Positions 3,791 to 62,620 of a stretch of 64,000 bases of DNA are shown here, one piece after another. A program made the position numbers and the translations under genes. The notes beneath the pieces are model-generated. The model was not told the origin of the DNA, searched no databases, and was given only the letters and a program-made list of their open reading frames with translations. The DNA lies in contig JAUZTB010000001.1 of NCBI GenBank assembly GCA_034780895.1, forward strand, positions 72,464,337-72,528,336, given 5' to 3'. Numbering within the stretch: the first letter of the stretch is position 1; each line of letters starts with the position of its first letter. Source of the DNA: Rhynchobatus australiae (lineage: Eukaryota).

Positions 3791-4908
3791 TGAAATTCTC
3801 ACCAAGCCATAATAATGGAGGGGCAGACAGGGAGGTGGAGAGGATAATGGTGTTGGAAAAGGGAAGAGTCCAAACCTTATTGAGGAAAATTAGAGGAAAC
3901 CAGGAGGGGGGTGATTGGAATGAGGGGGTGACTTTGGATAGGAATTAAATGGTCAAACTTTATGGTCCACATTGTAGGCCACTGAACGAAGTCCATGAGG
4001 ACATAATAATAATAGACACCCTTAGATGTGCCAGTTACACTGAGGAAGTAGCCAGTGTAATGCCTCCTGATCAAGAAGGGACCAAAGGATGAGCTGGATT
4101 TGGATCTAAGGTTTATCGTCACTTCTGATAAAACCAATGATTATTCAAAATAAACTTAGCCTTCAAAAATGTACGACATCATCGAGGACAAACAAAAGGC
4201 ACCTTTGACAAATTAAGGGATTACCTGTTGAGGAGTTGCTGTTTTGGAAAAATTGCTAGACATGAGGCTGAAGGTTTTTCAAAAGATGTTCAGTTAGAAA
4301 CCTTACAAGAGGTCCACCACAAAACGTTGGCCAGGTTCCAACACAGTACAGTAGCAGGGGTGGGGAGGGCGGATTGGTTGACAGTCAACAGAATGTTTCT
4401 CCAGTTCGTGGGAAGGGGGAGAGGGGAAGAATAGTGGAAGGTATGGTTGAGGAAATATTGGCAGTGCGACTTCAGGGTAAGGGTGATCACTGAGAAAATG
4501 AGAAGAGTTTTGGGTAAATATTTATACACGGAAGGTTGTGGGAGCATCAAGTACTTGGCCGCAGGATATGCTCAAGGCAAGGACTCTTGCTTCAGTAGTT
4601 AGCATCAATATTTGAATGACTGAAAAGTGGGCAGCTGCAGAGAAAGCCAGGTAGACTTGGATTAGTTTGAATTATTGAAGCAAAGAGGGGCCCTTGCCTC
4701 TACACTACTCTCTGTTATCCCTCCCCCTCCCCCTCCGATGACCCTCTCCTTCCCCCCCCCCCCACCATCACCATCCCAATTGCTGCCTACCAGTAATGGG
4801 ATGACCCAGACACACAATCTATATCAGTTGAGTGCTCTGTAGTTACACTTGCTGTATGGTTTACGGATTCTACAACCGACTTAAAAACCTACCTTTCCCT
4901 TGTTGCAG

Positions 4909-6399: not shown

Positions 6400-7058
6400 T
6401 GGTTATTGGTTTACTATTGTCATCTGCGCTGAGATACAGTGAAAAACTTTGCTTTGTGTGCCATCAATACAGATCATTACCAACATCAAGGTAGTACAAA
6501 AGGAAAAATAATAACAGAATGTAGAATATAGTGACATAGTAACAGAGGAAGTGCAGAGTAGGTAGACAATAAGGTGAAAGGCCATGATGAGATAGACTGT
6601 GAGGTCAAGAGTCCATCTTATCATACAAGAAGTCAATTCAATAGTCTTATAAAAGTGGGATAGAAGCTGCCCTTGAGCCAGGCAGTATGTGTTTCCAAGC
6701 TTTTGTATCTTCTGCCCGATGCAAGGGGGGAGAAGAGCGAACGTCTGGGGTGGATGGAGTCACCTATTATGCTGGCTGTTTTACTGTGGCAATGAGACTT
6801 GTAGACAGAGTCCATGGAGGGGAGATTGGTTTTCATGATGGACTGAGCTGTGTCCACAACTCTCTGCAAATTCTTGCGGACTTGGGCAGGGCAGTTGCCA
6901 TACCAAGCTGTGAAGCATCCAAGTTGGATGCTTCCTATGGTGCATCTATAAACATTGGTGAGGATGAACAGGGACATGCCAGATTTCCTTAGCCTTCTGA
7001 GGAAGTAGAGGCACTGGTGTGCTTTCTTGGCCATGGTGTCTACGTGGTTGGACCAGGA
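6400..7058 (-). mobile_element. Rex1/Babar-like LINE 3' fragment
   Basis: ORF 6633..7124 contains WSNHVDTMAKKAHQCLYFLRRLRKSGMS...YRCTIGSI...WYGNC, the conserved post-RT region of Rex1/Babar. The 3' UTR ends near 6400. Confidence 0.85.
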
Positions 7059-7061
7059 CCT

Positions 7062-7240
7062 ATCAGAGGAAGTGGCTGAGGCTGGTGCAATAACAACTTC
7101 TACAGGACAGTTGGGCAGGTACATGGATAGGAAAGGGTTAGGTGGTTATGGGCCAAATGCTGGCAAATGGGACTAGCTTGGATAGGGCACCTTGGTCGCC
7201 GATGGGCTGTATGGGTCTATGACTCTGTGACTATGACAAG
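7062..7240 (+). mobile_element. CR1 LINE 3' end fragment
   Basis: Characteristic 3' sequence (gaggctggtgcaataacaac...tacatggataggaaaggg...atgggccaaatgctggcaaatgggactag). Confidence 0.65.
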
Positions 7241-19325: not shown

Positions 19326-19969
19326 GTGAGTCTGTTAGTCCACAAATTGAAGAACTTAATATTCAGTCAATTTGCAGAGGCATTTTTCAATGGGACTTTC
19401 TGACAATAAAGGGGAACTGATGGAAGGGAACCATGCCTGCAGTACGTGTAAAGCAACACATCGTGGTGCCAGCTTCTCACTGGGTTTCCACTTGACTGAT
19501 CTGGATAGAACATTGGGACATCACTGGAGCATTGGCTGCTACTCTGCTGTTTTTTACAGTAGAGTCTTGGGTGCAATTTTCCTTTGGGTGTGTGGCTCCC
19601 TGTCCAACTGCAGGGCTGCCCCCAGTGTAAGTGGTCCACTATAGTGATAAAAATGGGGCTGACAAGGTGGGTCATCTCACTGGCTGCCAAGCTGCTGTTT
19701 AACTTCTTTTACGATAACAGCACAAGTGGTGTACCTTCCCAACACAAGGATAGTCAACAGGATTAGCTGGTTCTGTCGTCCTCCAGCAATCCCATTTCCC
19801 TATGTTCTTATAGTTACTAGTGGGGAATCACTGAATTGAGCAATCAGTGCAGTGGATTCATAGATTTTGGATTAGTCTGCTAACATACACAAATCTTATC
19901 AAAATGTATTTCAAAAATGTTCATTTGGCATATCTAAACTTCGTTTCTTTCCCTCTTTCCTCTCTCCAG

Positions 19970-20122
19970 ACTGTGAGAAGCAGTGTGGACCACTGGATAT
20001 TGTGTTCGTCATTGACAGTTCAGAGAGTATTGGGCTGACCAACTTCACCTTGGAAAAGAATTTTGTCATCAACACTGTGAGCCGATTGGGCACATTAGCC
20101 AAAGACCCCAAGTCTAAAACAG
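19970..20122 (+). CDS. col6a2: Collagen VI alpha-2 C1 VWA domain, first exon (153 nt)
   Basis: ctccag acceptor and gtcagc donor, phase 1/1. Encodes [50 protein letters not shown], with MIDAS DxSxS. Confidence 0.97.
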
Positions 20123-20669
20123 GTCAGCAACTCGGGAAGGCACCCTCGTACAAAGCTACCCCTTAATCAGGTTAATGGGAAATTTTCTTCACATAATCTT
20201 ATGTTTGGAATCCTCCCTACTCCATAATTTGGATCACCATGAAATAATTCATAGCTTTCTTTTTATTTTGCCTGTCTCATTCATAGAGTTGCACAGCAAA
20301 CTTCGGCCAACCACGTTGTTTATTGACAGGAATCCCCTTTGTCCACATTAGGACCATATCCTTCCATGCCTTGCTGTTTGTCATAATGCCTCTAACGTGT
20401 AGTAATTGTACCTGATTCTACCACCTCCTCTGGCAGCGCGCTCCAGATACAATCTTCATTTGCAAACGCTCAGCTTTCCACGTGTGTGTAAACCTAATCC
20501 TCAAAGGGAGTTGATCAGGACCTAGAGTTTAGAATGTGATGGTCCTCCATGTCTTGTGCCCTGTACTTTGCCTCCTTTCTGTGCATTCTGTTTGGCTCCC
20601 AGTGGAGCTTCCTCCTGCCCTGTTTACTCTCTATTATGCAATAACCTCATGGCGTACGTTGAATTGCAG

Positions 20670-21122
20670 GAGCCCGTGTTGGCGTCGTCCAGTACAGCCA
20701 CAATGGAACGTTTCAAGCGGTACAGCTCAACGATCCGAAAATCAACTCCCTCTCGACGTTCAAGGAGGCGGTCAAGCAGCTGCAGTGGATTGCAGGTGGG
20801 ACGTGGACCCCCTCTGCCCTCAAGTTTGCCTACGACACGCTGATTAAGGCCAACAAGCGCGACAATGCAAAGGTCTTTGCCGTGGTGATCACTGACGGGC
20901 GCCACGACCCGCGGGACGATGACACGCTGCTCACCTCCCTCTGCCAGGGTGATGTCATCGTCAACGCCATCGGCATCGGCGACATGTTCTACAGAGCAGA
21001 GGATGACGAGACCTTGCAGTCCATCACCTGCAGGCAGGACGGGCGCGTTCAGAAAATGAACCTCTTCGCCGACCTGGTGGCTGAGGAGTTCATCGACAAG
21101 ATGGAGGAACTGCTCTGTCCTG
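20670..21122 (+). CDS. col6a2: Collagen VI alpha-2 C1 VWA domain, second exon (453 nt)
   Basis: ttgcag acceptor and gtaggt donor, phase 1/1. Encodes [15 protein letters not shown]...[16 protein letters not shown]...[14 protein letters not shown]...[11 protein letters not shown]. Confidence 0.97.
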
Positions 21123-21544
21123 GTAGGTCCAGCTCATGGGAAGTAGCTTAAGCATGTCCTTTGGTAGCTTGGCTTACTCCTCAGTATTGAACAGTTTCCC
21201 CACCCACCCCTCCTACAGTGGCTCATAGACCTCTGTTGTAAGCCCTAACATTAAATCTTTTGACTAACTCATCCTCGTGAGACACTTAGACTTGCCACTG
21301 CACGAAGTGGTTAAGGTCAACGGTGTAGGGTATTGAAGGGGGAGCCTGATACACACACAATTGTCTCATTGATGGGATAAGATGCAGAAGAGTGGGGGAA
21401 AGCTCTTGTGAAGCTGCTAAACACCCCTCTGAAGCTGCTGCCTCGGTTGAACTGACAGCAGGTTATAAATGAGGCTCTCCTCACTTCCCTTCGCTCCCTA
21501 CCAACCATTTCTTTCAATGTATCACAAGCTTTCAAAAGCCCTTC

Positions 21545-21750
21545 ACAAGAGACCGCAGATGCTGGATTCTGGAGAAACAAACAATCTGCTGGAAGAATTC
21601 AGCAGGTTGAGCAGCATCTGTGGGGGGGGAAGGAACTGAAGGTGTTTCAGGACTGATGCAGGGTTTTGACCCGAAATGTTGACTATTCCTTTCCTCCCAC
21701 TGATGCTGCTCGACCCACTGAGTTCTTCCAGCAGACTGTCTGTTGCTCTA
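21545..21750. mobile_element. Palindromic non-autonomous repeat (long inverted arms)
   Basis: tctgctggaagaattcagcaggttgagcagcatc is matched by gatgctgctcgacccactgagttcttccagcaga. Confidence 0.75.
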
Positions 21751-22336
21751 AAACCCCTTCAGATGTTGGTGTCAAATCATCACAGTGCCTCCAACACCCA
21801 CCTCCCCTCANNNNNNNNNNNNNNNNNCCCCCCACCTCTGTTTCACTGCCCTTCCAGATGCCTGTCAGTAAATGTCTTGTTCCTTATGTCCAAATTCAAG
21901 ACACTTGAAAGGCAAGCTAGCCTTGATTAAAGCAAAGCTATAGGAGGGTACTTAAGCCAGAGTTGGGTGCATGGTTTGGGCTGAGGGGAAGTTGTGTTGA
22001 GGGACCTGTTACATTTCTTCCAGGTAAGGGTGGCTTTTCTCCTTTCTATCCATCTGGCTCTGCAAGTACCTGGTTTAAAGGTCTATAATGAAATGTTGCA
22101 CAAAGCTCCATGGGGTGGGTATACAAGATCACCAATCACCATCAGATCAAACTCTCCGTTGGGGAAACTATATAAAGAATGGGGCCTGCAACTGGTTTCC
22201 TGATTAGGGAATGGTGCACATTACATGATAGGCAGGGGATAAATAAGTTTAATTGAGGATATTACTCTGTTAAATTTGCTTTTAGGTTCTTACTAAAGTT
22301 GTGAATGATTTTACATCCTGTTTCTCTTCCTTTCAG

Positions 22337-22375
22337 AACCTGAGATTATCTGCCCTGATCTCCCATGTAAAACAG
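22337..22375 (+). CDS. col6a2: Collagen VI alpha-2 C1-C2 linker exon (39 nt; EPEIICPDLPCKT)
   Basis: tttcag acceptor and gtatgt donor, phase 1/1. Matches the recalled human PQIVCPDLPCQT. Confidence 0.96.
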
Positions 22376-23799
22376 GTATGTTCCAAATAAGTCAAAGCGC
22401 ATTGAGTAACTGCATCACTTTGAGACATTAGACTACACATAGAGAGGAGGCAAGCTGTACAAGAGGAAATTCTGCATGTTGACTACATGTAAACAGTTTA
22501 TAGAACTATATAGACTGCTTTTGACTGAACAGGCACCATGTAAAAGTAGACTATAGCACACAAGGTGTAGATATGCAGGCAACAGGATGTCTTCTCTCAC
22601 CCACTACTCTTTCCTTTGTGTTTAATCTTAAAAGAATTCATTGAAGCAACTTTGACAGAAAACAATAACAGCACATAAGTCTTGAATTGTGCATATTAGG
22701 ACCCTTTTCCCATATGGAATTGTAGAGACAGTTACCAAATCTTTTTTCTTTATAATCCAGATCCAAAGGTAAGAATATTTGCGTTTTTCTGTTTGATGAA
22801 TAACTCATTGTTGAAAGGATGGATCATTTGCCATGAAATGCAACTGATCTCTTGAATTGTATAAAATAAAATATTAATCTGAGTACATAAAATTGCCAGC
22901 TCGGACTGGACAAGGATGGTGTAAATGAGGTGCCATCCCTTTGTTTGGGCATCTAGTCATGGAGGCAGATGGAAAACATGGGTACTGCATCCTGATCCCT
23001 GTACCCTGCTGTAAGGTAGGTCCAAATGGTCCCCAGGGAAAGAAAGGCTGAAACTCCTTTTGATCCTGTGCTCAATCCTCTCAGTAAATTGATCTGCCTG
23101 CTTGTGTTATGAGTGGCCAACTGGTAGAGCACACAGGCCAACTGCCCGTTCCCCTCAGCCAATAGCAACCCCCCCCCCCCCCACCGTCCTCACCCCATGA
23201 TCTTGAGGTCCGGGCTGGCTTACATTAGGCTAACTTGGTTCCCTTCTCCAGGCTGAGGTCAATCTGGGAAAGCCTCTGTATAGCCGAGCCGCGGTGGAGG
23301 TTTGTGTTCCAAGCTAGCAGTGGTCCAGGTTACTTATGTGGGTCCCAGAGTAACCTCTCCTGATTCCCTGGGACCCTCATTGATAATTTGACTGCTGCCT
23401 TTGCTGGTCCTCTCCTGTTCCACCACTTGCGGAACTTCTCAGTCGGTGACAACATGAGGTAACGTAGGACACCATTTGAAGTTGAAAATTGACCTCTGGA
23501 ACCATACATGGTTGACTGCCTGTGGAATACTGGCTGGTTCAGGCCAAAGCCTCTGAGGTATCATTCCAGCTGCAGTAGAATTGGGATCCACCTCTGGATA
23601 CTCGAACACTCCAAATTCTTGAAATCAGCCTTCGTTCTTCTTCAGTTACTTTTGTTTTTGGGTTTCAGTTTGAAGTGCCACTGCCAAAAAGCATTGCTCA
23701 TTTGGTCTGTGCGCACAATTGCTGTCACAAAGTCCCGTCTTCCTTCAGACACAGCAAGAGGGAGAGCTTTGGGGACCAATATCTCAGTCTTTTCTATGG

Positions 23800-24110
23800 A
23801 GTGGTCACCACTGATAGAAAGCTCTCTGCCTCTCGGCTCCAGGGAACCTGGGTTTGATCCCGACCTCGGGTACTGTGTAGGCAGACCTTCCCTGCAACTG
23901 CAGGGGTTGCCACTGGGCTCATCCCACATCCCAAAGGGACGCTGGTAGGTTAATTGGCTTGTGTAAGTTGCCCCCATTGTAAGGAGGTGGTGGAGGAAAG
24001 GTGATCTGAATGTATGAAAGAGAATAATTAGCGGGGGTGGAATTGATGGGATTGCTCTTTTGGGAGCTGACATGGACTTGTAATGAATGACCTCCTTCTG
24101 TGTCTTACTA
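23800..24110 (+). mobile_element. tRNA-derived V-domain SINE, diverged
   Basis: ctgcctctcggctccagggaacctgggtttgatcccgacctcgggt head and tcccacatcccaaag...taggttaattggc core. Confidence 0.7.
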
Positions 24111-25044
24111 TTGTGATGGGGGGGAGGGGGTGGGGATGAACCCTGAAATGGACGGGGCATGTGGGTATTACCATGGATGTGTAAACCTGACTGGCCAGTG
24201 GAAAGATCGGTGATGCTGATTCATTACCTTGCCTGGTGGTGACAGAGCCGCTTAACTAAAGTGAGACCACTGTGGAAGTGGGAAGGATGGTTGAACTGTG
24301 TATGAACATAGAGTCCAAGCATGACGCTAACCATATGTTCCACTAACTGAGATGGCTGCATGCGCTCGACTGCTCTTTACAGCAAGCAGAATGCAGTGCC
24401 AGAACATGCCCTGTAAGGAGGCCCAGGGCCGAGCTAAACATAAAACATAGGTGTATGGACGAAACTATGGAATGCAGGAAGTGGGCTGGAAGGTGAGGGG
24501 AGGGCATGGTGTGCAATGAGCTATGTTGTAGAATCATTGCCTGCCAGTGTACGTTACAGGAGCATATGATCTGTAATTGAACCAGATTTGTTTGTACCGT
24601 GAGAAGAATCTGCTGACATATCGACAACTGCAATAGCTTCTGAACAACTCGGTGCATAAAGTTACTTAGTACCATTTAGGGTGGCTTTTAAGGAGTCTTG
24701 TGCATGCACTGTTATTACAAAGCTGCATGCACAACCTTTCCTGTTCTGGCTGTAACCCTAACCTTGCTGCTGACTCTCCTTGGTAACAATGGAGCGGGAA
24801 GACATTTGTCTTTGAACAGGAGAACATTGATTGGTTGTTGTTCTCGCACCTTTCCCCATTCAAATCCGCAGTGTTACTGAATGTTGGGAGGTGAGCAAGC
24901 TCGCACCTGCACGTGATTTCAGTGCTCGTGATAAAAGACTAATTGCTCCCCTGTGATTGCACATCACTGACTTTCCATATATTTTAAAACAACATAATTT
25001 TAGAAATTTCAATTAAATCTCCTCTCTTCCATCCAAATACCATG

Positions 25045-25380
25045 GGTTGTGGCTTAGCAATAACACTCTTGCTCCCAAGTTAGATGGTTAAGTCAGATCC
25101 AATGCAGAGGTTGAAGATTGGCACTGGGCTGTGGAACCGAGGGGAGCGCTGTGCTATCAGGAATGGCGTCTTAAAATGATATGCTAAACGTCTACTCTGT
25201 CAGGAGGGGCATCAATGTCTCCCGGGAAACTGTTCTGAAGCAGCATGCTGACTTCTCCATAACCTGGTGAACCACTGATGTATTTCATTGCTGTTTGTGG
25301 GACTTTGTTGCAACGCTGCGGGACTTCATAACATCAGGCATCTTGAGAAAATGAAAAGCACTACGTAAATGCAAGTGCCT
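25045..25380 (+). mobile_element. Deu-domain SINE (SacSINE1/AmnSINE1-like), diverged
   Basis: cattgctgtttgtgggactttg core and gaaaagcactacgtaaatgcaagt 3' end. Related copies at about 45520 (-), 48690 (+) and 56250 (+). Confidence 0.6.
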
Positions 25381-25685
25381 TCCTGCCTTTCCCCTCCTCC
25401 CCTTAACCTCTTCCTTTTTGTTCTTTATTTTTCCTTTTGATTCCTGTTCTTCTCTTGCATCCTCATTCCTCCTTTTACTTGTCCATTCCACAGTGGCCTC
25501 CGCATTGGTATTCCGTGCTTTGGTAAAGACCGTGATGCTGTTTCATGGCACATTGAGCAATCGTCTGTTCTCTTTGTAAGCTGTGGCCAGAAGGATTTTG
25601 AGAGGAGCTGTGCAGGTTTACTGGTAACTGAGTGAATGGTAGCCAATGCCAGCGAGCCTAAACTCTTCTTTTTAATCGTTTTCAG

Positions 25686-25975
25686 ATGAATTAAACAGTA
25701 ACGATGCAAAACCAGGTAACCCATCCTTCCCAGGGTCTGAGAGCGACCCTGAGAACTGGTTTTCCACATTCCAGGAACTTACATCAGCCATGCAAACTGC
25801 TCAGCACCCAGACGCCTACAAAAAACTGGTGGCAACCATGGCCTACACTGCAGGGATGGCCAAATTTGCCAGCGGAGAGGAACGCAAAAATTGGACAGAT
25901 TTATTCATAGATTCTTTTAAAATGGTTTACAGCAACCTAACAGGGAACGTCGACAAAGCAATGGGGCTGTGCTAG
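25686..25975 (+). CDS. col6a2: Alternative terminal exon of collagen VI alpha-2 (C2a-type tail, 96 aa, replacing the C2 VWA domain)
   Basis: Strong acceptor ctcttctttttaatcgttttcag|AT in phase 1, compatible with exon 22337-22375. Open frame (D)ELNSNDAKPGNPSFPGSESDPENWFSTFQELTSAMQTAQHPDAYKKLVATMAYTAGMAKFASGEERKNWTDLFIDSFKMVYSNLTGNVDKAMGLC-stop. It resembles the recalled human isoform 2C2a tail (..YTAERAKFATGVERQDWMELFIDTFKLV..ALALC). Confidence 0.88.
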
Positions 25976-27157
25976 GGGAAGTGTGCGATTTATTCCACGG
26001 CCGTGACTGCTTCACGGCACGCGCCGGTTCCCACTGTTGAAGGACGATGGAAAGCCAGCTTGTTTCCCATTCTGAGCCTTACATTGTGGTCCCTCCGAGT
26101 CATTCGCAGCTGCTCAGGGGGACTGGCTAACTGGGCATCAAAGGCCGCCCACTGCAGTTATGCCCAGGTTTTCCCAGCTGCTTAACAGTCCGCCATTGGT
26201 TTGGGATGGATCCCAGGATGCGCACATCCCACAGAGCCTTTTCAGCAAAGGAGGAGGCCATTCAGCCCACTGACTCCCTGCTGGCCTCTGTTCCCATTTG
26301 CACTCCTGAATCTGGCTTGTTTATTCTGACGAAACAACCAGGCAGTCAAAGAAATCTGGGTACATAAGTCCTCTTCCGGGGCAGGGGGACAGGAATTTAG
26401 TGGTGCAAAGGCCACAGGGTCTAAAGTGGCTCTCCTGGAATCCGGACTGAATGCAGACCCATTTAACTAGAATCGGAGCATTTGGGCAATGGGGTGGGGA
26501 TGAGGTGAGCTGAAATCTATACTTGTGAAGTAAACCTTGCTCCAATGAGAAATAAGAGTAGAAATTGTTGGAGGTGAAGTGTAGGCTAATCATTATCTAA
26601 AGAATCTGCATGCAGACTCTCCAATTGGACCTTGAAGTTCCCAGCTCTGGTTTGATATATCTCCAGAGGTTACACTTCATCACCTCTAGCATCCCACCCC
26701 CCATGATTGGGCTACCAGACTGTTGGGTATCTTCCGAGGTTGTTTGGAAAGGGAGTGGCCTCTCTTTATTCCCGACTCCAGTATTTTAATAACTAAACCT
26801 CAGATATATATTGATTTTTAAACAATGCACACTTCATGCACCACTCTGTGAAAGTACTCCTGTGATTTTGTTTTCTTCTGGCACGGCTGTGTCCTGGGAA
26901 TTGACCTCCAGGACCTGCCTGGAGCTTAGCAACCCTAACAAGCTGAGCTGAAGGGGAGCCTCTGGAATGTGAACTGTCTGCTCCCCCTCCTCGGATGCCC
27001 ATAGTCTGTGTAGTATTCCCAGCACTTTCTGATTCCCATCACTCCCCCACCATTCTGCCTCTCTACCCCCGCCCCGCCCACACAAGCGGAGGAGTCTGCT
27101 GGCGATGCTTGCTTCTGCCTTTTTGGATGCAGTTTTCAACATGTATATGTATTATTC

Positions 27158-27163
27158 AATAAA
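27158..27163 (+). promoter_or_regulatory. Candidate polyadenylation signal for the alternative (C2a-type) terminal exon
   Basis: AATAAA preceded by two TGTA motifs (atgtatatgta) and followed by a T-rich stretch, about 1.2 kb after the stop. Confidence 0.5.
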
Positions 27164-29479
27164 CAATTCATTTTATTCTCAGATGCTGGATGATGTTTTA
27201 ATAGAAAAGAACAAACTCATATTTTTCTATTGCCTTTAACTGTGGTCAGTGTTCTAATGCAGAAAGGCCGGCAGCCTGTTTCCACACAGTGAGATCCCAC
27301 AGACCAACTCATGACAATGACCAGGTGATCTGCTTGCAGTGAAGTTGATTGAGGAACAAACATTGGGCACAGTACCGGGAGGAATTCCTCCTCTGTCGTC
27401 GGCTGTGAGCATGTGACGTGATGCCATGTTATTGTTAAACTCAGCCTTTGCAGTTTGGCTCTTATGATTTTAAGACAGTGATACAACAGTGGACAAATTT
27501 CTCCCCTCCAGCTTTGTGCCTTGTGCTCGAGGTGACATCTTGCTGGAGTACCCAGTAGTTTATGTGCTCAGGTCTCTGGAGTGGGACTGGAAGGAGGGTT
27601 GGACTCTACCTCTGACCCACAGCTGAGGGTGTGGGTTTTGAGGAAGGCTGGTTGGTGAACCTCCCAACGGGAGCCCTGGGCAGCTGGTTTTAGCCTTGCA
27701 CTGCAGCTGAAGAAACTGTCTGCACCTCGGTTTAGGAAAGCTTCCTTTCGTAGCCTGTGCTGATGGTGATGCCCACCCCCAAGAGCCAGTGCACTGTGAT
27801 GGTGAATGTAAAGACCTTACCGCTGTTTCTCATCCACCCTTGTGAGTTCTACTAAAACTCTCCATTAATCCTCCTGCAGCAACTTGTTGAATGCAAAACA
27901 AAAAAAAAATCTAAGGATACACAGTCGGCTTTGGTAGTGGGGAATGGGGGTGGCGGGGGGTGGTGGTATTCACCTTTTGGTGCACAGATTTGGTGCAGAT
28001 TGATCAGAGCTGCTCCAGGCAGGGAGACAAACACACCTTCCTAAATAATCTACCTGTCTTCTCACTTGCACCTTAGACGTGCTGTGTATGTGCAGTGTTC
28101 CCAAGGTGTCTAATTCCTAATTGGCATTGTGCTCCACTCCATCCCTTCTGTGTACAAGCGTGGGGCAGAATGGGGATGGATCCAGGCTTTTGGAGCCAAT
28201 CGATGTTCACCATGCAAGAATGCAAACCAAGGTTTCTAGTAAAGGGCAGTGTTTGCTGATACTAAATTATCGTGGTGTTCCAATCCAGGGTTGACCTCTC
28301 ATCGAGACTCCAGTGCTCGGAAGAGGTCTTTCCCGAATCCTCAGGTCCAGAAAATTCTGGCTGTAACAAACCATACCAGCAAAACTGAGATGGGTCACAA
28401 ATGGGAATGAGGTTGCAGTCTACAGGGTCCAAGTGGCCGTGTCAGTGGGCTTTGTGACTCTAGGTTATGATGCACATGGGTAACGCCAGCCACGTAATTG
28501 ACCCAATTGAACCAACACTCAGTGACGGGAGTGAAAGAGCTAAAGCAGGCAACCTCTGGCATTGCCTCTCTGGTGGTCCTAACAATGGGTTAATGTCACG
28601 CCCCCAGTGAAAAGGAGGGAGGAAGGATGGGCAGTAGGTAAAGGTCTCCTTCCTTCACCACTTTTGGTGGTGTTCCTCACCAGCAAGATGGAGCCTGAGC
28701 TTCAGAATCACTTGCCCGAAACTTTTAAAGAGTTGAGCAGAACGTTGGTTAGTAAGTGCCATTGGGAGAAGAGATTATCCTATCCAGGACTGCTTCCAAT
28801 CTCACTGCATCTGTTCATGGATTGGTTTTGTTTATTCATGCTTTCATAAGGTCAAGTTCCCAGGAGCTGATAAACTCCTACTGGGTTACTGGATTAACTG
28901 CAGTGAACTAGAACCAAACAGGGTATCACATTTGGGATATGGAGAGAAGGTGTTCTATTCACTCTCGCTGTGCTGGTTAGCCACATCCCCCTCCTCCTCC
29001 TCCCCCGACCCTCATTGGAGCCAGGGCAATGCGGCCATTGTTAGAAACTTGCCCTCCCAATAGAAGAGAAATTTGGAATCTAATTCCAAATGGGGCATTT
29101 CCATAAACCTTCATGGTTCAAGACAAAATCCATCGTGACACAATCTTGGGCATACATCTATCATGTCAATTGAAGTATGGATGCCTAGAGAGGACATATG
29201 TGTCTTCAAAACCACACTGGAAACCCTCTCTTTACCGAAGTGTGTACCAGTTGCTAAGTGATGTTTTCTCCTCAGGGCCTCAGTATGACACTTAACATTG
29301 TTCAACTGGTTTACACCCATGTTTCAGCTGCTTGGCCCGTGCAGGAATCCATATCTTACTTCTCAGAATGTCATTGTACGCCCCAGGGTTACAGTAGCAA
29401 GTATTGTGCAAGCTTCTCCCTAACTGAATCTTATCCAGGGTTTTAAGGAGAATGGAGAAGGGAAATACAGATGCTGAAG

Positions 29480-30380
29480 TCATAATTCTGCGAATGCCTG
29501 CTTGATTCAAGAATTGTTCCTTTTGATTTAAGATTGCAAATGTAACTGTTATTTAAGGGAGGCAGGAGAGCAGGTGTGGAAATTATAGGCTGGTTAGTCT
29601 GTTAACAGCAGTGGGCAAGTTATTTGAATTTATAATAGGAGCAAAGGTAGGAAGCTAATGTGCATTTGTAAAGGGTAAGTCCTGCACAAGAAACCTCAGT
29701 TACTTTTTCAAAGCGTTATAGGGTCAGNNNNNNNNNNNNNNNNNNNNNTTAAAATTTATTGGGTAAGATCTGGCATAAAATTAAAGCTGGTTGAATTGAA
29801 GACAAACTGTTGATTTGGCAGAGGCATTCATTAGTCAATAGAAAACAGAATGGGAATAATTGGCTGTGGTATATCTCTAGGATCGGTGCTGGAGCCTCAA
29901 CTAATCACTGTTTGATGACTTGGGTGGCATGCAAAATTATCTACATTTGCTGCCCAAATAGGAAGTTGTTACACTAAAACATAAAATTATATTGAATGAT
30001 TCGTGAGTGAGCAGAACTATAGTGAGTGGACTTCACTACAACCAAATTGGAGGTCATCCACTTTGGACCAAAGAGGGAATTAATCGGAGTGTTAATTTAA
30101 AGAATAAAAAGCTGGGCATAATGTAGGCCTTAAGAGGTTTAGGGTGTATGTGTACGGATAGCAACTCACAGTCTGAAACGAAAACTAATTGCGAAAGCTA
30201 TTGGAATGTTGGCCTCTACCATCAAAGAGCAAGATTGTGGAGACAGGGTGAAGCTTTGTTTAGACCATCTGGAGTACTGTGTGCAGTCTGGGCTCTGCAC
30301 CTTCAGAACGAATATGTTAGCCTTGGGAGTGGAGTGTCGATTCAAGAGAATGTTGCCAGGGCTCCTCGGAGTTGGATTAT
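29480..30380 (+). mobile_element. CR1 LINE RT fragment, heavily degraded
   Basis: Remnants of ANVT.LFK.G...NYR.VSL..VGK, of GSVL.P (ggatcggtgctggagcctcaact) and of HLEYCVQ. Confidence 0.75.
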
Positions 30381-31180
30381 TTGGAAAATTGCATTCCTTT
30401 CTGAGATTTGGAATTTTCTGGGAGCACTTAATTGGAAGCTGCTCAGAAAGCTGATAGGCTATTCAGAAGTAAGCAATTTTCTCTGGTGCATGTGCCCTGA
30501 ATAGAGGGGCTTGAGGTACTTGGGACCGGGAGCATTTCCTCGCACGATACTGGAGCACTCTCTGGCAATAAGCTGGAGACCAGATANNNNNNNNNNNNNN
30601 NNNNNNNNNNNNNNNNNNNNNNNNNNNNNNNNNNNNNNNNNNNNNNNNNNNNNNNNNNNNNNNNNNNNNNNNNNNNNNNNNNNNNNNNNNNNNNNNNNNN
30701 NNNNNNNNNNNNNNNNNNNNNNNNNNNNNNNNNNNNNNNNNNNNNNNNNNNNNNNNNNNNNNNNNNNNNNNNNNNNNNNNNNNNNNNNCACTGAAACAGA
30801 TAACCTGGCCATTATCCCACTGCTGCTTGCACGGCCCTGCTGTGCACCGGTTCTAACTGTGGGTGAAACTCCAAGAAAGTCTGTTGAGCAAATAATCACT
30901 TCCAAGGTCAAAGAAAAGAGTGACTTTCAAATGCAAGGTTTATTCAAACCTCCTGGTGGTTACTTTCTTATTTAAAATTTGTGCTGGGTTTCCTGTCAGT
31001 GATGCTAAGTGCCTGTGATGCTGCTGCAAGTAAATTCTTCATTGCAACTGTGCATACATGACTCTTGCATGGGAACAATAAACTCGACTTTGACTGTTTC
31101 TTGGGTGGGTTGGGGGAGGGAGGGGATGGCAGCCCAGTGGTATCTTGCTCGACCTAACGTGCCCCTCTTGTTTCACCCAG

Positions 31181-31770
31181 AGCTGGCCGTCGCACCGTGC
31201 ACGCAGCGTCCGGTGGAGCTGGTCTTTATGGTCGATGGCTCGGAGCGGATGGGCGAGACCAACTTCCGTCTGGTGCGCGAGTTCGTGCAGAAGGTGGCGA
31301 ATGAGTTGCCCCTGGCCACAAGCGACAGTGACGTGTCCAGGGCCCGCCTCGCCGTCCTGCAGTATGGTGGTGAGGCGGAGCAGCAGCTGGTCTTCGGCCT
31401 GAGCTATAACCTGACCGATATCCTGGACTCCCTGGCTGCCATGAAGTACCTGGACTCGGCCTCCAACGTGGGCTCCGCCATCATCTATGGCATCCACAAC
31501 CTGGTTCAGAGACCCACCAGGCTGGGGTCGGAGCTCTCCTTCCTCTTCATTACGGACGGCACCAGCGGCAGCAAAAGCCTGGGTGAGGCTGTGGACGCCA
31601 TGCGCAAGCATAACGTTGTGCCCACAGTGATCGCGGTGGGCCAGGATGTGGACATGGATGTCCTACTGCAGATAGGGTTAGGGGAGAGGGCCGCCATCTA
31701 CCGGGCAGATGACTACTCCCAGATCCTGCAGCCAGCCTTCTTCGATAGACTCTACAGGTGGATCTGTTAA
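31181..31770 (+). CDS. col6a2: Collagen VI alpha-2 canonical terminal exon, C2 VWA domain
   Basis: tttcacccag acceptor in phase 1. Encodes (E)LAVAPCTQRPVELVFMVDGSERMGETNF...ELSFLFITDG...QPAFFDRLYRWIC-TAA, where RWIC-stop is the COL6A2 C-terminus. The ORF track start at 31009 is intronic. Confidence 0.98.
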
Positions 31771-32279
31771 GGACTTCAAATTCAACGCCCTACGCTCCCC
31801 AGAAGGTTGGCGTAAGGTCTGTCCCCAAGTACCTTATATTAGTTTTATGTTATTCAGGAAAAGATAAAACAAGGTGCTTTCTTTTGTACTCATGTAATTA
31901 TTTTTTTTCATCCTCATTTTCCTCCTATCATTTGGTACATTTCTTGCTCACCAAGCCTGAAGATTTGCTAGGGGTTACCAACGCTGTTTGGGCATTTCCT
32001 TGGGGTGTTGATCACAGTGGCCCTGTCTCCAAAGTCCTGTCAGTCACTCAGTATGTCCATGCCTGTGGCAACTTCCTCACACCCACTGGAAAAGCAAACA
32101 GCCAGCTCATGCCCCGCTGGGACAATGCTTCATCATTTTCTTCTACCAAATAATAATAGAATTTGTCCAGCGCCTACTTTTCTTATTTTTAAAACAAACA
32201 CGCAATTTCTGTTTTTATAAGTGCCACTATAAATTTTCCCTTTTCACCAACAGGGTCACCTGTGCAGGTATCCTTACAA

Positions 32280-32385
32280 TGCCAGGACAGTCCTGGATAT
32301 TAAATAGGAAATTCCTGGAAATGCCAGGACAATCCTGGAGATCAAATAGGAAATTCCTGGGTTTGTCAGGACAGTCCTGGAGGGC
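32280..32385. repeat. 42-bp tandem repeat (about 2.5 copies) built from short palindromes, in the col6a2 3' region
   Basis: tgccaggacagtcctggatattaaataggaaattcctggaaa / tgccaggacaatcctggagatcaaataggaaattcctgggtt / tgtcaggacagtcctgga. Confidence 0.85.
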
Positions 32386-34329
32386 GGGAAGCCCTACAGC
32401 TTTTTGGAGAACCAAATATTTCTTTCTCCTTGTGCCTCTGCCTGCTGTCCTGAGCAGCACATTATTTTTGATGTTTCGTAACCTCTATCATTGAAATGTG
32501 CACTGTTAACTCAAATTTCTCTGAGCAAACTAGGGAGTATCACTTGATGCCAAGGTTTGAGATGGAGGCCAGCCCCTTGCATTAAAGTTTCCTTTTCTTC
32601 CCACTGCCTTCTAATTGGAAGGTGATAAAGGGCTAAAACCACAGGCAGACAGCAGCATCTTGCTGCTGCCACAGCTCCTCCCTCCATCCCAACACTCTTG
32701 GGGAAGAAAACACATGTAAGATAACACAATATCCAATCCCAGTGTCCCTTCCCACCCCAGCAAGCTGCGTACTCTAACATAGGGGACAAGACTGTGGAGA
32801 AATACTTGTCACTGTTACTGGATACAGGACCACAGAGAAATACAGCCCATTGTAATTGGATACAAGGATGGAGAGAATACTGCCCATTGTAACAACACTG
32901 CCCACCTTAACACATTACCTTGGCTCTGTTCCCAGATACCACTGCCCTCAGTGTGTTACCAGCACGCAGTCTGTGATCTGCCCAGTCTAGTCCCCACCAC
33001 TTAAAGCACTACTGTTTAAATTGTACGGTGGCTTATAACCGACCAATAACCATAACAGACCATGTCATTCTCCGAATTTGCTGATCTTGGGAGAAACAGT
33101 TGTGGAAATAGACTAGTTTGCACCTTGAAGTGACACAATGAAGACAAGCACAAATGGAAGTAAATCACTTGTCATTAAGGTGTAGTTATGTTTTGTGTAG
33201 AGAAACCCTCTTAACCTCCTCCCTGTGGGTCACTGTCTGTGCTAGGCACGGGATAGAACTTGAGCAAAGCCTGTTGCAGAGTATTAGTTCCTGAGAGCTG
33301 CAGTAATCCCATTGTGTGGTCGGGCCACGTTGTTCCTGTCATCCACTATAGGTGGTAAAACACACTTGCACAAGCACTTCCTCCAAAATGTTGTGGGAAG
33401 TTCATGGATAAAATGAGAGGAATGGAATGGGCCCCTAAACTTTGCAATCACTTGATGTGACTCCACACATATGAGCTTTCTAAAGGTGCTTTTTTATTAT
33501 GATGGTAACGTTTCATTAGTGAGGTGGGAGGGAGGTGTTGTGGGACTTGAGAGGCTGATGTTCTCCTCACCAGTAGGTGGCGGTATTGTGCAATGAGTAA
33601 TGAGGGGCCTTTTCCACTCAGTGAATGAACTTGAAGTTCAGCTGAAGACACTCAACCAGATGGAGGCAGTTCCATTGAATAAAATGTACCCAAATCATTG
33701 GCTTTCCCAGATGCTGGCAAGATCTGCCAAGACCTCCAGGCGTCTTCATTGTTCTCATAAAACTTTTGGTGTCCAGAAAGTTTAGATGTGGTGTAAAGTG
33801 ACTTTCCCTTGCCGAGTGCACAAGGTGGGGTGCATTTGAAGCGAAAGCATGCTGAGCCTCCCTCACCAAACAACCTCCTTGTGTGTCCTGCCTATTGCTA
33901 GCTCCATGCACAGGGTGGCAGCCAAGTTTGGCAGCTGGTGTACAGGATCCAGATGTTGGCAGCAGGTTCCCATGCGCCCCCCCCCCACCCGCTGCCCTTT
34001 GTGACACACAGCGAGGGTGCTGGAGTGGCAGGGCACCCTTAGTGTCAGATGTCTAGCAGCTCAGTCCTCTTCCCTGGCATCCAGCTCAGTGAGATCCTAT
34101 CAGCTTAGTGAGGCTCATTGGACTTGCTGGGTGAAGCAGCCACCCTTTGACACCAAGTCCTGGTGGGCTGTGCCTGTTTTCTATTGGAGAGCCGCAAAGC
34201 TTTGTAATATATATTTCTAGAGAATGTTTGTTTTTTTTTGCATTGAAATAGTCCTTATCAGTTGTTCCACAAATGTATTTTCATACAGTCTGCTGCATCC
34301 AAATTTGAATAGTTCTGTACTAAATACCA

Positions 34330-61759: not shown

Positions 61760-62620
61760 GAAATTCATGGATGCCCCCTCTGGTGTCAGGAACACTGGCA
61801 TTTTATTTGGGACCGGGCAACTCACAGAGAGATTTTGGTCCACCATGTGGATGCCCAGACCCACAAAAATACAGAGGACACTATACACAATGCCGCTGTG
61901 GACCAGGCTGCCCAAATATGCTCCAGATTAAACCAACCTCAGTGCTTTAGCTGAGTGGGCACACCGCAAAAGTGGGCATCTAGGGGCCGATGGTACATGG
62001 TGTCGGGCGCAGCACAATTCGGGGTTGCTCTGACATTGGATCAATGTAAGACCAGTGTTGCTAACTGCCGTATCTGTCAGCAAGTGAAGCCACGAGGTTG
62101 GCCAGCAGGGCCGCCGGGTCGCATTTGCCGCGGCGCGGGAGTGGGTCACATGTGGCAGATTGACTATATCGGACCGCTCCCACGCCAAAACAAAAAGCAG
62201 TACGCCCCAACGATGGTGGACACATACTCCAGTGTCCTGGTGATGGTGAGAGGGCTGACCAGAATAGCACCATCAAAGGATTGCAGCACCTCTCCTCCAT
62301 CTATGGAGTCCCATGGGAGGTACAATCCGATCAGGGCTCACACTTTGCTGGGGCTAAAGCCCAGAACTGGGCTGCTGAGGTGGGGCTCTTGTGGCTGTCC
62401 CACATACCCTATCACCCACAGGCATCAGGCCTGATTGAGAGAATGAACGGCCTGCTAAAGAAAAAATCTGCACGCTAACGCCCTCCCGCACACTGCAGGG
62501 GTGGTTGAGCGTGCTGCAGCAGGCTGTCGACCAGTTGAATACACAGCCCACTGGCCAAGGGGGGTCCCCACTGTCCCGCCATCTGGCACACTCCCCACCT
62601 GCCGACTTGGAAGACACCGA
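61760..62620 (+). pseudogene. pol: ERV pol 3' part (RNase H C-terminal half and integrase), frameshifted
   Basis: PLWCQEHWHFIW..ILVHHVDAQTHKNTEDTIHNAAVDQAAQI; WAHRKSGHLG and CRICQQ (HHCC); WQIDYIGPLP; MVDTYS; VQSDQGSHF; HIPYHPQASGLIERMNGLLK (D,D35E). Confidence 0.93.

Follow-up and report, generated by a model that had tools for sequence, protein, structure and literature searches.

The window, a stretch of 64,000 nucleotides, contains the 3' part of col6a2, to which the alpha-2(VI) chain of sawfish maps exon after exon from position 4903 on. The features discussed here are listed with the evidence for each in brackets (X1 and X2 are sequencing runs).

20670..21122, + strand: C1 exon, encoding most of the C1 VWA domain and common to both isoforms (tblastn, Pfam VWA, contig joints)
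22337..22375, + strand: linker exon of 39 nt, encoding EPEIICPDLPCKT with two Cys
25686..25975, + strand: alternative last exon, coding part, a C2a-type tail of 96 aa including the split Asp codon (spliced in X1 and X2; orthologues)
25736..25942, + strand: FAM180-like region, tail residues about 17-85 (Pfam PF15173, hhalign, HMM controls, AlphaFold)
25970..25972, + strand: terminal Cys, the sole Cys of the tail (conserved in orthologue tails)
25976..27181, + strand: 3'UTR of the alternative exon, with AATAAA at 27158-27163 (signal scan; an X1 contig spans 25683-27181)
31181..31770, + strand: canonical last exon, coding part, C2 VWA domain ending RWIC-stop (Pfam, contig joint)

The C1 exon matches sawfish residues 670-820 at 100% (tblastn) and is flanked by contig joints at 20119>20667 (cut +3) and 21121>22336 (cut +1). 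The linker exon ends at 22375 in a phase-1 donor (ACAG/gtatgt) that is common to both last exons. A pyrimidine tract leads into the acceptor of the alternative exon (...ttttcag/AT at 25686), whose phase matches this donor. The phase-1 junction joins G to AT, so that the first tail codon is Asp, followed by 95 codons up to the TAG at 25973-25975; the resulting tail of 96 aa has the C-terminal end AMGLC. The first AATAAA or ATTAAA downstream of this stop is the AATAAA at 27158. The original prediction of an intact, in-frame phase-1 exon of 96 aa with a polyA signal at that position was thus confirmed in acceptor, frame and signal.

The canonical acceptor (...cacccag/AG at 31181) is also phase 1 and opens an exon that encodes a VWA domain (Pfam VWA, E 5.6e-27). 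Pfam gave no VWA match for the alternative tail, and the structural model of the tail is all-helical, not of the Rossmann-type alpha/beta kind. The genome yielded a single copy of the tail exon, a number that is a lower bound.

Elsewhere in the window, integrase-like frames at 61955-62478 (weak Pfam rve match, E 0.023) probably belong to a decayed LTR element, and a LINE-like frame at 6633-7145 on the reverse strand (Pfam ALKBH8_N, E 2e-8) is an interspersed repeat fragment. Intronic fragments of interspersed repeats at about 21550-21750 and 31000-31095 have very high contig depth.

Use, distribution and conservation of the alternative exon

Splice junctions were taken from contigs of four runs (X1-X4) over positions 19800-32600; X1 and X2, from one study of a related species that is about 95% identical, are presumed to be RNA, and their contigs skip GT..AG introns. 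The predicted spliced use of the alternative exon is borne out by a contig joint 22375>25686 with GT..AG ends, which occurs in X1 and X2 (two of the four runs) beside the canonical 22375>31181. Depth at the alternative joint was 35.4 in X1 and 11.7 in X2, and at the canonical joint 298.3 and 131.9, respectively, so that the alternative share of last-exon junction depth is 0.106 and 0.081, or about 8-11%, contig depth being a rough measure. Only the canonical joint was found in X3, yet the alternative exon is covered there, while X4 barely covers the gene. One X1 contig ends at 27181, about 18 nt beyond the AATAAA. The exon is real, and is spliced as a minor last exon with its own polyA signal.

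Frame-disrupting changes in related species were sought in four further runs of near relatives over 25600-26100 (X5 possibly being the source DNA, and X7 and X8 coming from a single sample), and none of the four contained any. The coding part of the tail is free of indels in all of them; the only indels lie in the intron at 25640 and in the 3'UTR at 25989.

Three protein searches returned a matching tail, usually in a protein named "collagen alpha-2(VI) chain isoform X2", from six elasmobranch genera, gar, many teleosts, three amphibians, turtles, squamates and birds. Named orthologue chains with the tail are 901-929 aa long, and the nearest protein to the window chain is that of sawfish (92%), which bears out the original condition that the host be a cartilaginous fish. 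Tail identity is 74-92% in elasmobranchs and 33-43% overall in bony vertebrates; the last 57 aa align ungapped with those of turtle, bird, lizard, snake, gar and catfish at 31-35 identities out of 57 (31-34 in sauropsids), which fits the value of roughly half that had been put forward for the human tail. The same phase-1 acceptor was present in metagenome contigs at a bird-like and at a teleost-like genomic locus, the latter having the order C1, tail exon, canonical C2 exon. As the tail exon occurs both in chondrichthyans and in bony vertebrates, it dates at least to the gnathostome ancestor, the age originally suggested for the isoform. No chimaera, coelacanth, platypus or cyclostome tails were seen, an absence that 90% clustering and a word-based search make uninformative.

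The human isoform 2C2a of COL6A2 (NM_058174) has been known since 1990 (Saitta 1990, as cited in PMC10965357 and PMC10049728). The exon described here resembles it: both lie upstream of the canonical last exon, have their own polyA site, are used as a minor alternative and replace C2. Because no mammalian C2a tail was among the returns of the three protein searches, we infer orthology with human C2a from position, length, architecture and the literature. Several public gene models fuse the alternative exon with the canonical C2 exon in one protein; these are probably prediction artefacts, cassette use of the exon being possible.

Conservation was assessed in 66 of 128 stored proteins, those kept by a filter for a clean tail of 90-105 aa that removed canonical isoforms, fused gene models and short or odd tails. 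Within these 66 tails, 17 positions are at least 95% conserved, all except one of them in residues 44-95. T54, A55, A58 and K59 are conserved at 100%, and E18 and D75 at 95%. A Cys lies within the last two residues in 64 of the 66 tails and is the sole Cys in 63, which leaves the alternative chain with three Cys after C1 versus four in the canonical chain. The window tail has two N-glycosylation sequons, NWT at residue 68 (25889-25897) and NLT at residue 83 (25934-25942); the second is missing from the sawfish tail, and 33 of the 66 tails have some sequon.

The exon had also been proposed to be under purifying selection, and this is clear over deep time (the 17 conserved positions) but weak between close species. 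Compared with X1, the tail exon shows 13 base differences and a crude pN/pS of 0.49 overall, with values of 1.27 for residues 1-40 and 0.26 for residues 41-95, all from small counts. The departure from neutrality is not significant for the whole tail (Fisher p 0.15-0.48), and p is 0.03-0.15 for the core. In the C1 exon, all 13 listed differences (of 14) from X1 are synonymous (pN/pS 0). Between close species the tail is far less constrained than C1. As judged from the aligned sequences, the constraint is deep and concentrated on predicted helices 2-3.

Relationship of the tail to FAM180

The tail had been regarded as unrelated to other sequences, a description that had to be abandoned since it resembles FAM180. 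In Pfam, the window tail matches FAM180 (PF15173) with 17.7 bits (E 0.0038). In a search of 24,736 families, this family was matched at E<=1 by 29 of 29 aligned tails (best E 1.8e-6, for one isolated tail) and the runner-up family by 6 of 29; the 29 tails are mutually related and so do not constitute 29 independent tests. Among full-length proteins, PF15173 was matched by 16 of 20 tail-bearing and by 0 of 5 canonical isoforms, and none of the 20 reached the Pfam gathering cut-off of 27 bits (best 24.5). A PF15173 match is precomputed for 1 of the 120 listed proteins of the tail search. The matches lie mostly within profile positions 67-137 (of 137), and a single one that extends to profile position 30 runs into C1 and is probably spurious. 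Pfam rows for CARD_2 and TIP39 were dismissed as weak.

The genome contains two FAM180 loci (C42:21204662-21215943 and C127:96823649-96823990). When the 29 tails were compared by hhalign with the FAM180 exons of both loci jointly, a probability of 96.2 and E 2.1e-9 over 68 columns were obtained; singly, the two exons gave probabilities of 73.9 and 90.1. An HMM of the 66 tails scores these exons at 20.0 and 20.1 bits. For either exon, none of the 2000 residue shuffles and none of the 2000 shuffles of 7-aa blocks reaches the exon score (maxima 4.5-12.1), and the reversed exons score -1.3 and -1.4 bits. Conversely, an HMM of the two FAM180 exons matched only the tail exon among 2005 frames of the window (E 1.2e-4, the next being 1.9). 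The aligned block comprises about 42 residues without a gap and includes the pairs Y44/F, T54/T, G63/G, W69/W and F77/F.

AlphaFold predicts the tail to be all-helical, with helices at residues 21-37, 43-60 and 63-85 and a pLDDT of 86-95 for residues 41-80 and below 50 for residues 1-20. The model is consistent with the original view of the tail as a helical module. The first 40 or so residues had been described as a divergent linker, but the poorly structured part comprises only about 20 aa, residues 21-37 forming predicted helix 1. The FAM180 model, obtained independently (two sequences, mean pLDDT 70.9), has helices at 42-53, 61-80 and 84-104, in register with those of the tail, plus N-terminal ones. 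In VIA-align, the two first-ranked neighbours, both of them three-helix-bundle chains, are the same for the tail and FAM180 models, which have 19 of 50 rows in common; this lends weak support to a shared fold because three-helix bundles are common. The Z values of the structural neighbours (8-9.5) are within the background of the tool for helical models, and as the neighbours are generic helical bundles only, their resemblance to GAT, BAG or designed bundles is not taken as a hint of function. With Foldseek, neither model had a match at E<=0.001. Searches of PDB sequences, made with the tail, its profile and a FAM180 exon, returned no solved relative and chance rows only; spidroin (E 0.38), chaperonin (E 0.44) and Crov588 (E 0.035) were rejected as such. 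A chicken variant has reportedly been likened to a fibronectin type III repeat, which is at odds with the all-helical model.

The resemblance could in principle reflect convergence of amphipathic helices, the tail then being a conserved orphan domain that has no ancestry in common with FAM180. Tail identity to FAM180 is only 13-25%, the Pfam scores are below threshold, an ESM Atlas feature search gave no FAM180 cluster (scores <0.9, dominated by VWA), and the three-helix fold is common, all of which would suit such a process. It is difficult to reconcile with the reciprocal HMM tests and their shuffled and reversed controls, with the hhalign E of 2e-9, and with the single family out of 24,736 that matches all 29 tails; tail and FAM180 also agree in helix lengths, in the G-x5-W motif and in how far these lie from the C-terminus. 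We therefore consider convergence highly improbable and are confident, on these sequence comparisons, that the tail is remotely homologous to the C-terminal half of FAM180.

The tail, a truncated FAM180-like domain, falls outside the family as strictly defined. Like the family, which is encoded mostly by its last coding exon, it occupies a last exon, and it matches the C-terminal half of the profile. It differs from FAM180 in having no counterpart of profile positions 1-66, a stretch that holds the ELAS motif and the preceding helices (predicted H18-23 and H25-37). We take ELAS to be the motif name of the Pfam FAM180 family, and EELAS/EELSS is present in FAM180 sequences. The tail also has Tyr in place of the Phe of FAM180's D/T-F-E and adds a G-D-P-x4-G-L-C end. 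Finally, it is fused to collagen alpha-2(VI), whereas FAM180 is a stand-alone protein that appears to be small and secreted. In the FAM180 gene on C42, a furin-type RLKR site lies ahead of the domain; the FAM180 exon on C127 ends in Cys, as does the collagen tail, and has a candidate signal-peptide exon nearby.

The last FAM180 exon starts in phase 0, about 30 residues ahead of the aligned block, and the penultimate exon starts in phase 1, like the tail exon. These phases fit either capture of FAM180 followed by trimming or budding of FAM180 from the tail exon. In a tree, the two FAM180 rows lie on long branches apart from all tails, and the direction of transfer is not given. An HMM of the FAM180 exons detected no upstream FAM180-like exon remnant in the window. 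Some 130 kb upstream, VWA-coding exons on the same strand (C1:72326800-72334430) probably represent col6a1, which usually lies in tandem with col6a2. A scan of 40 kb over the 3' end of this upstream gene, and of a weak hit on C64, revealed no frame resembling the tail or FAM180 (0 of 1410 frames under E 0.1). The bundle was presumably acquired by exon shuffling with a FAM180-type gene.

The isoform itself and its RefSeq annotation in sharks are already known; what is new is the domain identity of the tail. PMC10965357 and the available part of PMC10049728 give no domain family for the tail of human 2C2a, and the RefSeq "isoform X2" entries (sharks, rays, teleosts, amphibians, reptiles, birds), which have the same tail, are automatic models without a domain name. 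Among the papers listed, titles and abstract openings gave no link between FAM180 and collagen VI structure or domain homology; an earlier notice may exist in subscription journals or structure-classification databases. Among the matches listed, the FAM180 literature is, by title, almost all omics or GWAS.

Collagen VI assembly and the possible role of the tail

According to PMC12354898, collagen VI trimers are driven by the coiled coil, while in the microfibril bead C2 of alpha2 contacts C1 of alpha3 and C2 of a symmetry-mate alpha1. Human C2a chains are secreted (Zhang 2010, as cited in PMC10965357), and their assembly up to tetramers without incorporation into microfibrils has been proposed (PMC10965357). 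A forced switch to 2C2a causes recessive UCMD (Ullrich), with collagen VI that is secreted but mislocalised and sarcolemma-deficient; C2a cannot stand in for C2 in muscle and has been read simply as a loss of function there (PMC10965357). Because the coiled coil drives trimers, C2 makes bead contacts and 2C2a is secreted, a C2a chain should trimerise but lose the bead contacts. An altered assembly had been predicted with dimer formation in mind. Loss of the C2 contacts is indeed to be expected, but to judge from PMC12354898 the step affected by the swap is more likely to be bead or microfibril contact than the dimer step.

We favour a process in which a col6a2 transcript spliced from 22375 to 25686, and so ending in the alternative last exon with its own polyA signal, would give rise to a minor alpha-2(VI) chain. 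In this chain the C2 VWA domain would be replaced by a short linker, a FAM180-homologous predicted three-helix bundle and one terminal Cys. The minor chain would trimerise without making the C2 contacts of the microfibril bead. Its bundle would present a different binding surface that may dock on another matrix or cell-surface partner, and the subset of collagen VI containing it might cap, limit or bypass microfibrils. The odd Cys count after C1 (three, not four) would leave one thiol for an inter-chain bond. Invariant small or polar residues (T54, A55, A58, K59, D75) together with the terminal Cys point to a face for binding and to a thiol that is free or bonds between chains. On balance we lean towards a minor chain that would cap or divert collagen VI while displaying a binding module of the FAM180 type, which, beyond fold and homology, we infer.

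If alternative polyadenylation served instead as a regulated switch that merely turns C2 off, thereby tuning the amount of microfibril-competent collagen VI, the tail could be an inert stable cap that binds nothing specific but, once folded, gets past ER quality control and pairs off a cysteine. Such a cap would agree with C2a acting as a loss of function in muscle and with the unaffected heterozygous carriers (PMC10965357), as well as with the relaxed pN/pS between close species, and the conserved Y44, W69, F73 and F77 could be core residues. However, the near-invariant small or polar positions T54, A55, A58, K59, E18 and D75 differ from FAM180, which suggests a tail-specific surface, and short truncating isoforms (human C2a' and the short tails in two stored proteins) remove C2 without an ancient folded domain. 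Both the inert cap and a switch of this kind therefore seem rather unlikely to us, if worth keeping in mind.

Endotrophin is released from the C5 domain of alpha3(VI). This Kunitz domain, like the tail, is a non-VWA module at a collagen VI C-terminus; it differs in having another fold, in being constitutive rather than alternatively spliced, and in being cleaved. The tail might likewise be freed by proteolysis and act as a diffusible FAM180-like factor. In favour of release, a fast-evolving, low-confidence linker (pLDDT <50, residues 1-20) precedes the domain, and free FAM180 is seemingly a small secreted protein, with an RLKR site in a gene of the same genome. Removal of alpha3 C2-C5 by furin, MMP and BMP1 is noted in PMC12354898. 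The tail linker shows no conserved cleavage motif, dibasic or other, and the tail could be held to the linker cysteines by its terminal Cys, so that we regard a released factor as quite improbable, and the minor chain that caps or diverts collagen VI remains our preferred reading.

C2a takes over when the canonical polyA site is lost, which gives the isoform clinical relevance (PMC10965357), and, judging by its position, it would escape mutations that lie in the C2 exon. The FAM180 family has no known function, and the link to C2a makes both testable by way of the invariant surface, the odd cysteine and common partners. The tail also allows exon shuffling into a structural collagen to be dated. 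A wider proposal, which we put forward tentatively and would not yet bet on, is that col6a2 and FAM180 genes exchanged a helical exon before the split of sharks and bony fish, and that a polyadenylation switch displays a FAM180-type ligand module in place of C2. If this is true, C2a collagen VI and free FAM180A/B would share, or compete for, one matrix or cell-surface partner, and this would offer a first way into the function both of an orphan secreted family and of an isoform modifying COL6A2 myopathy.
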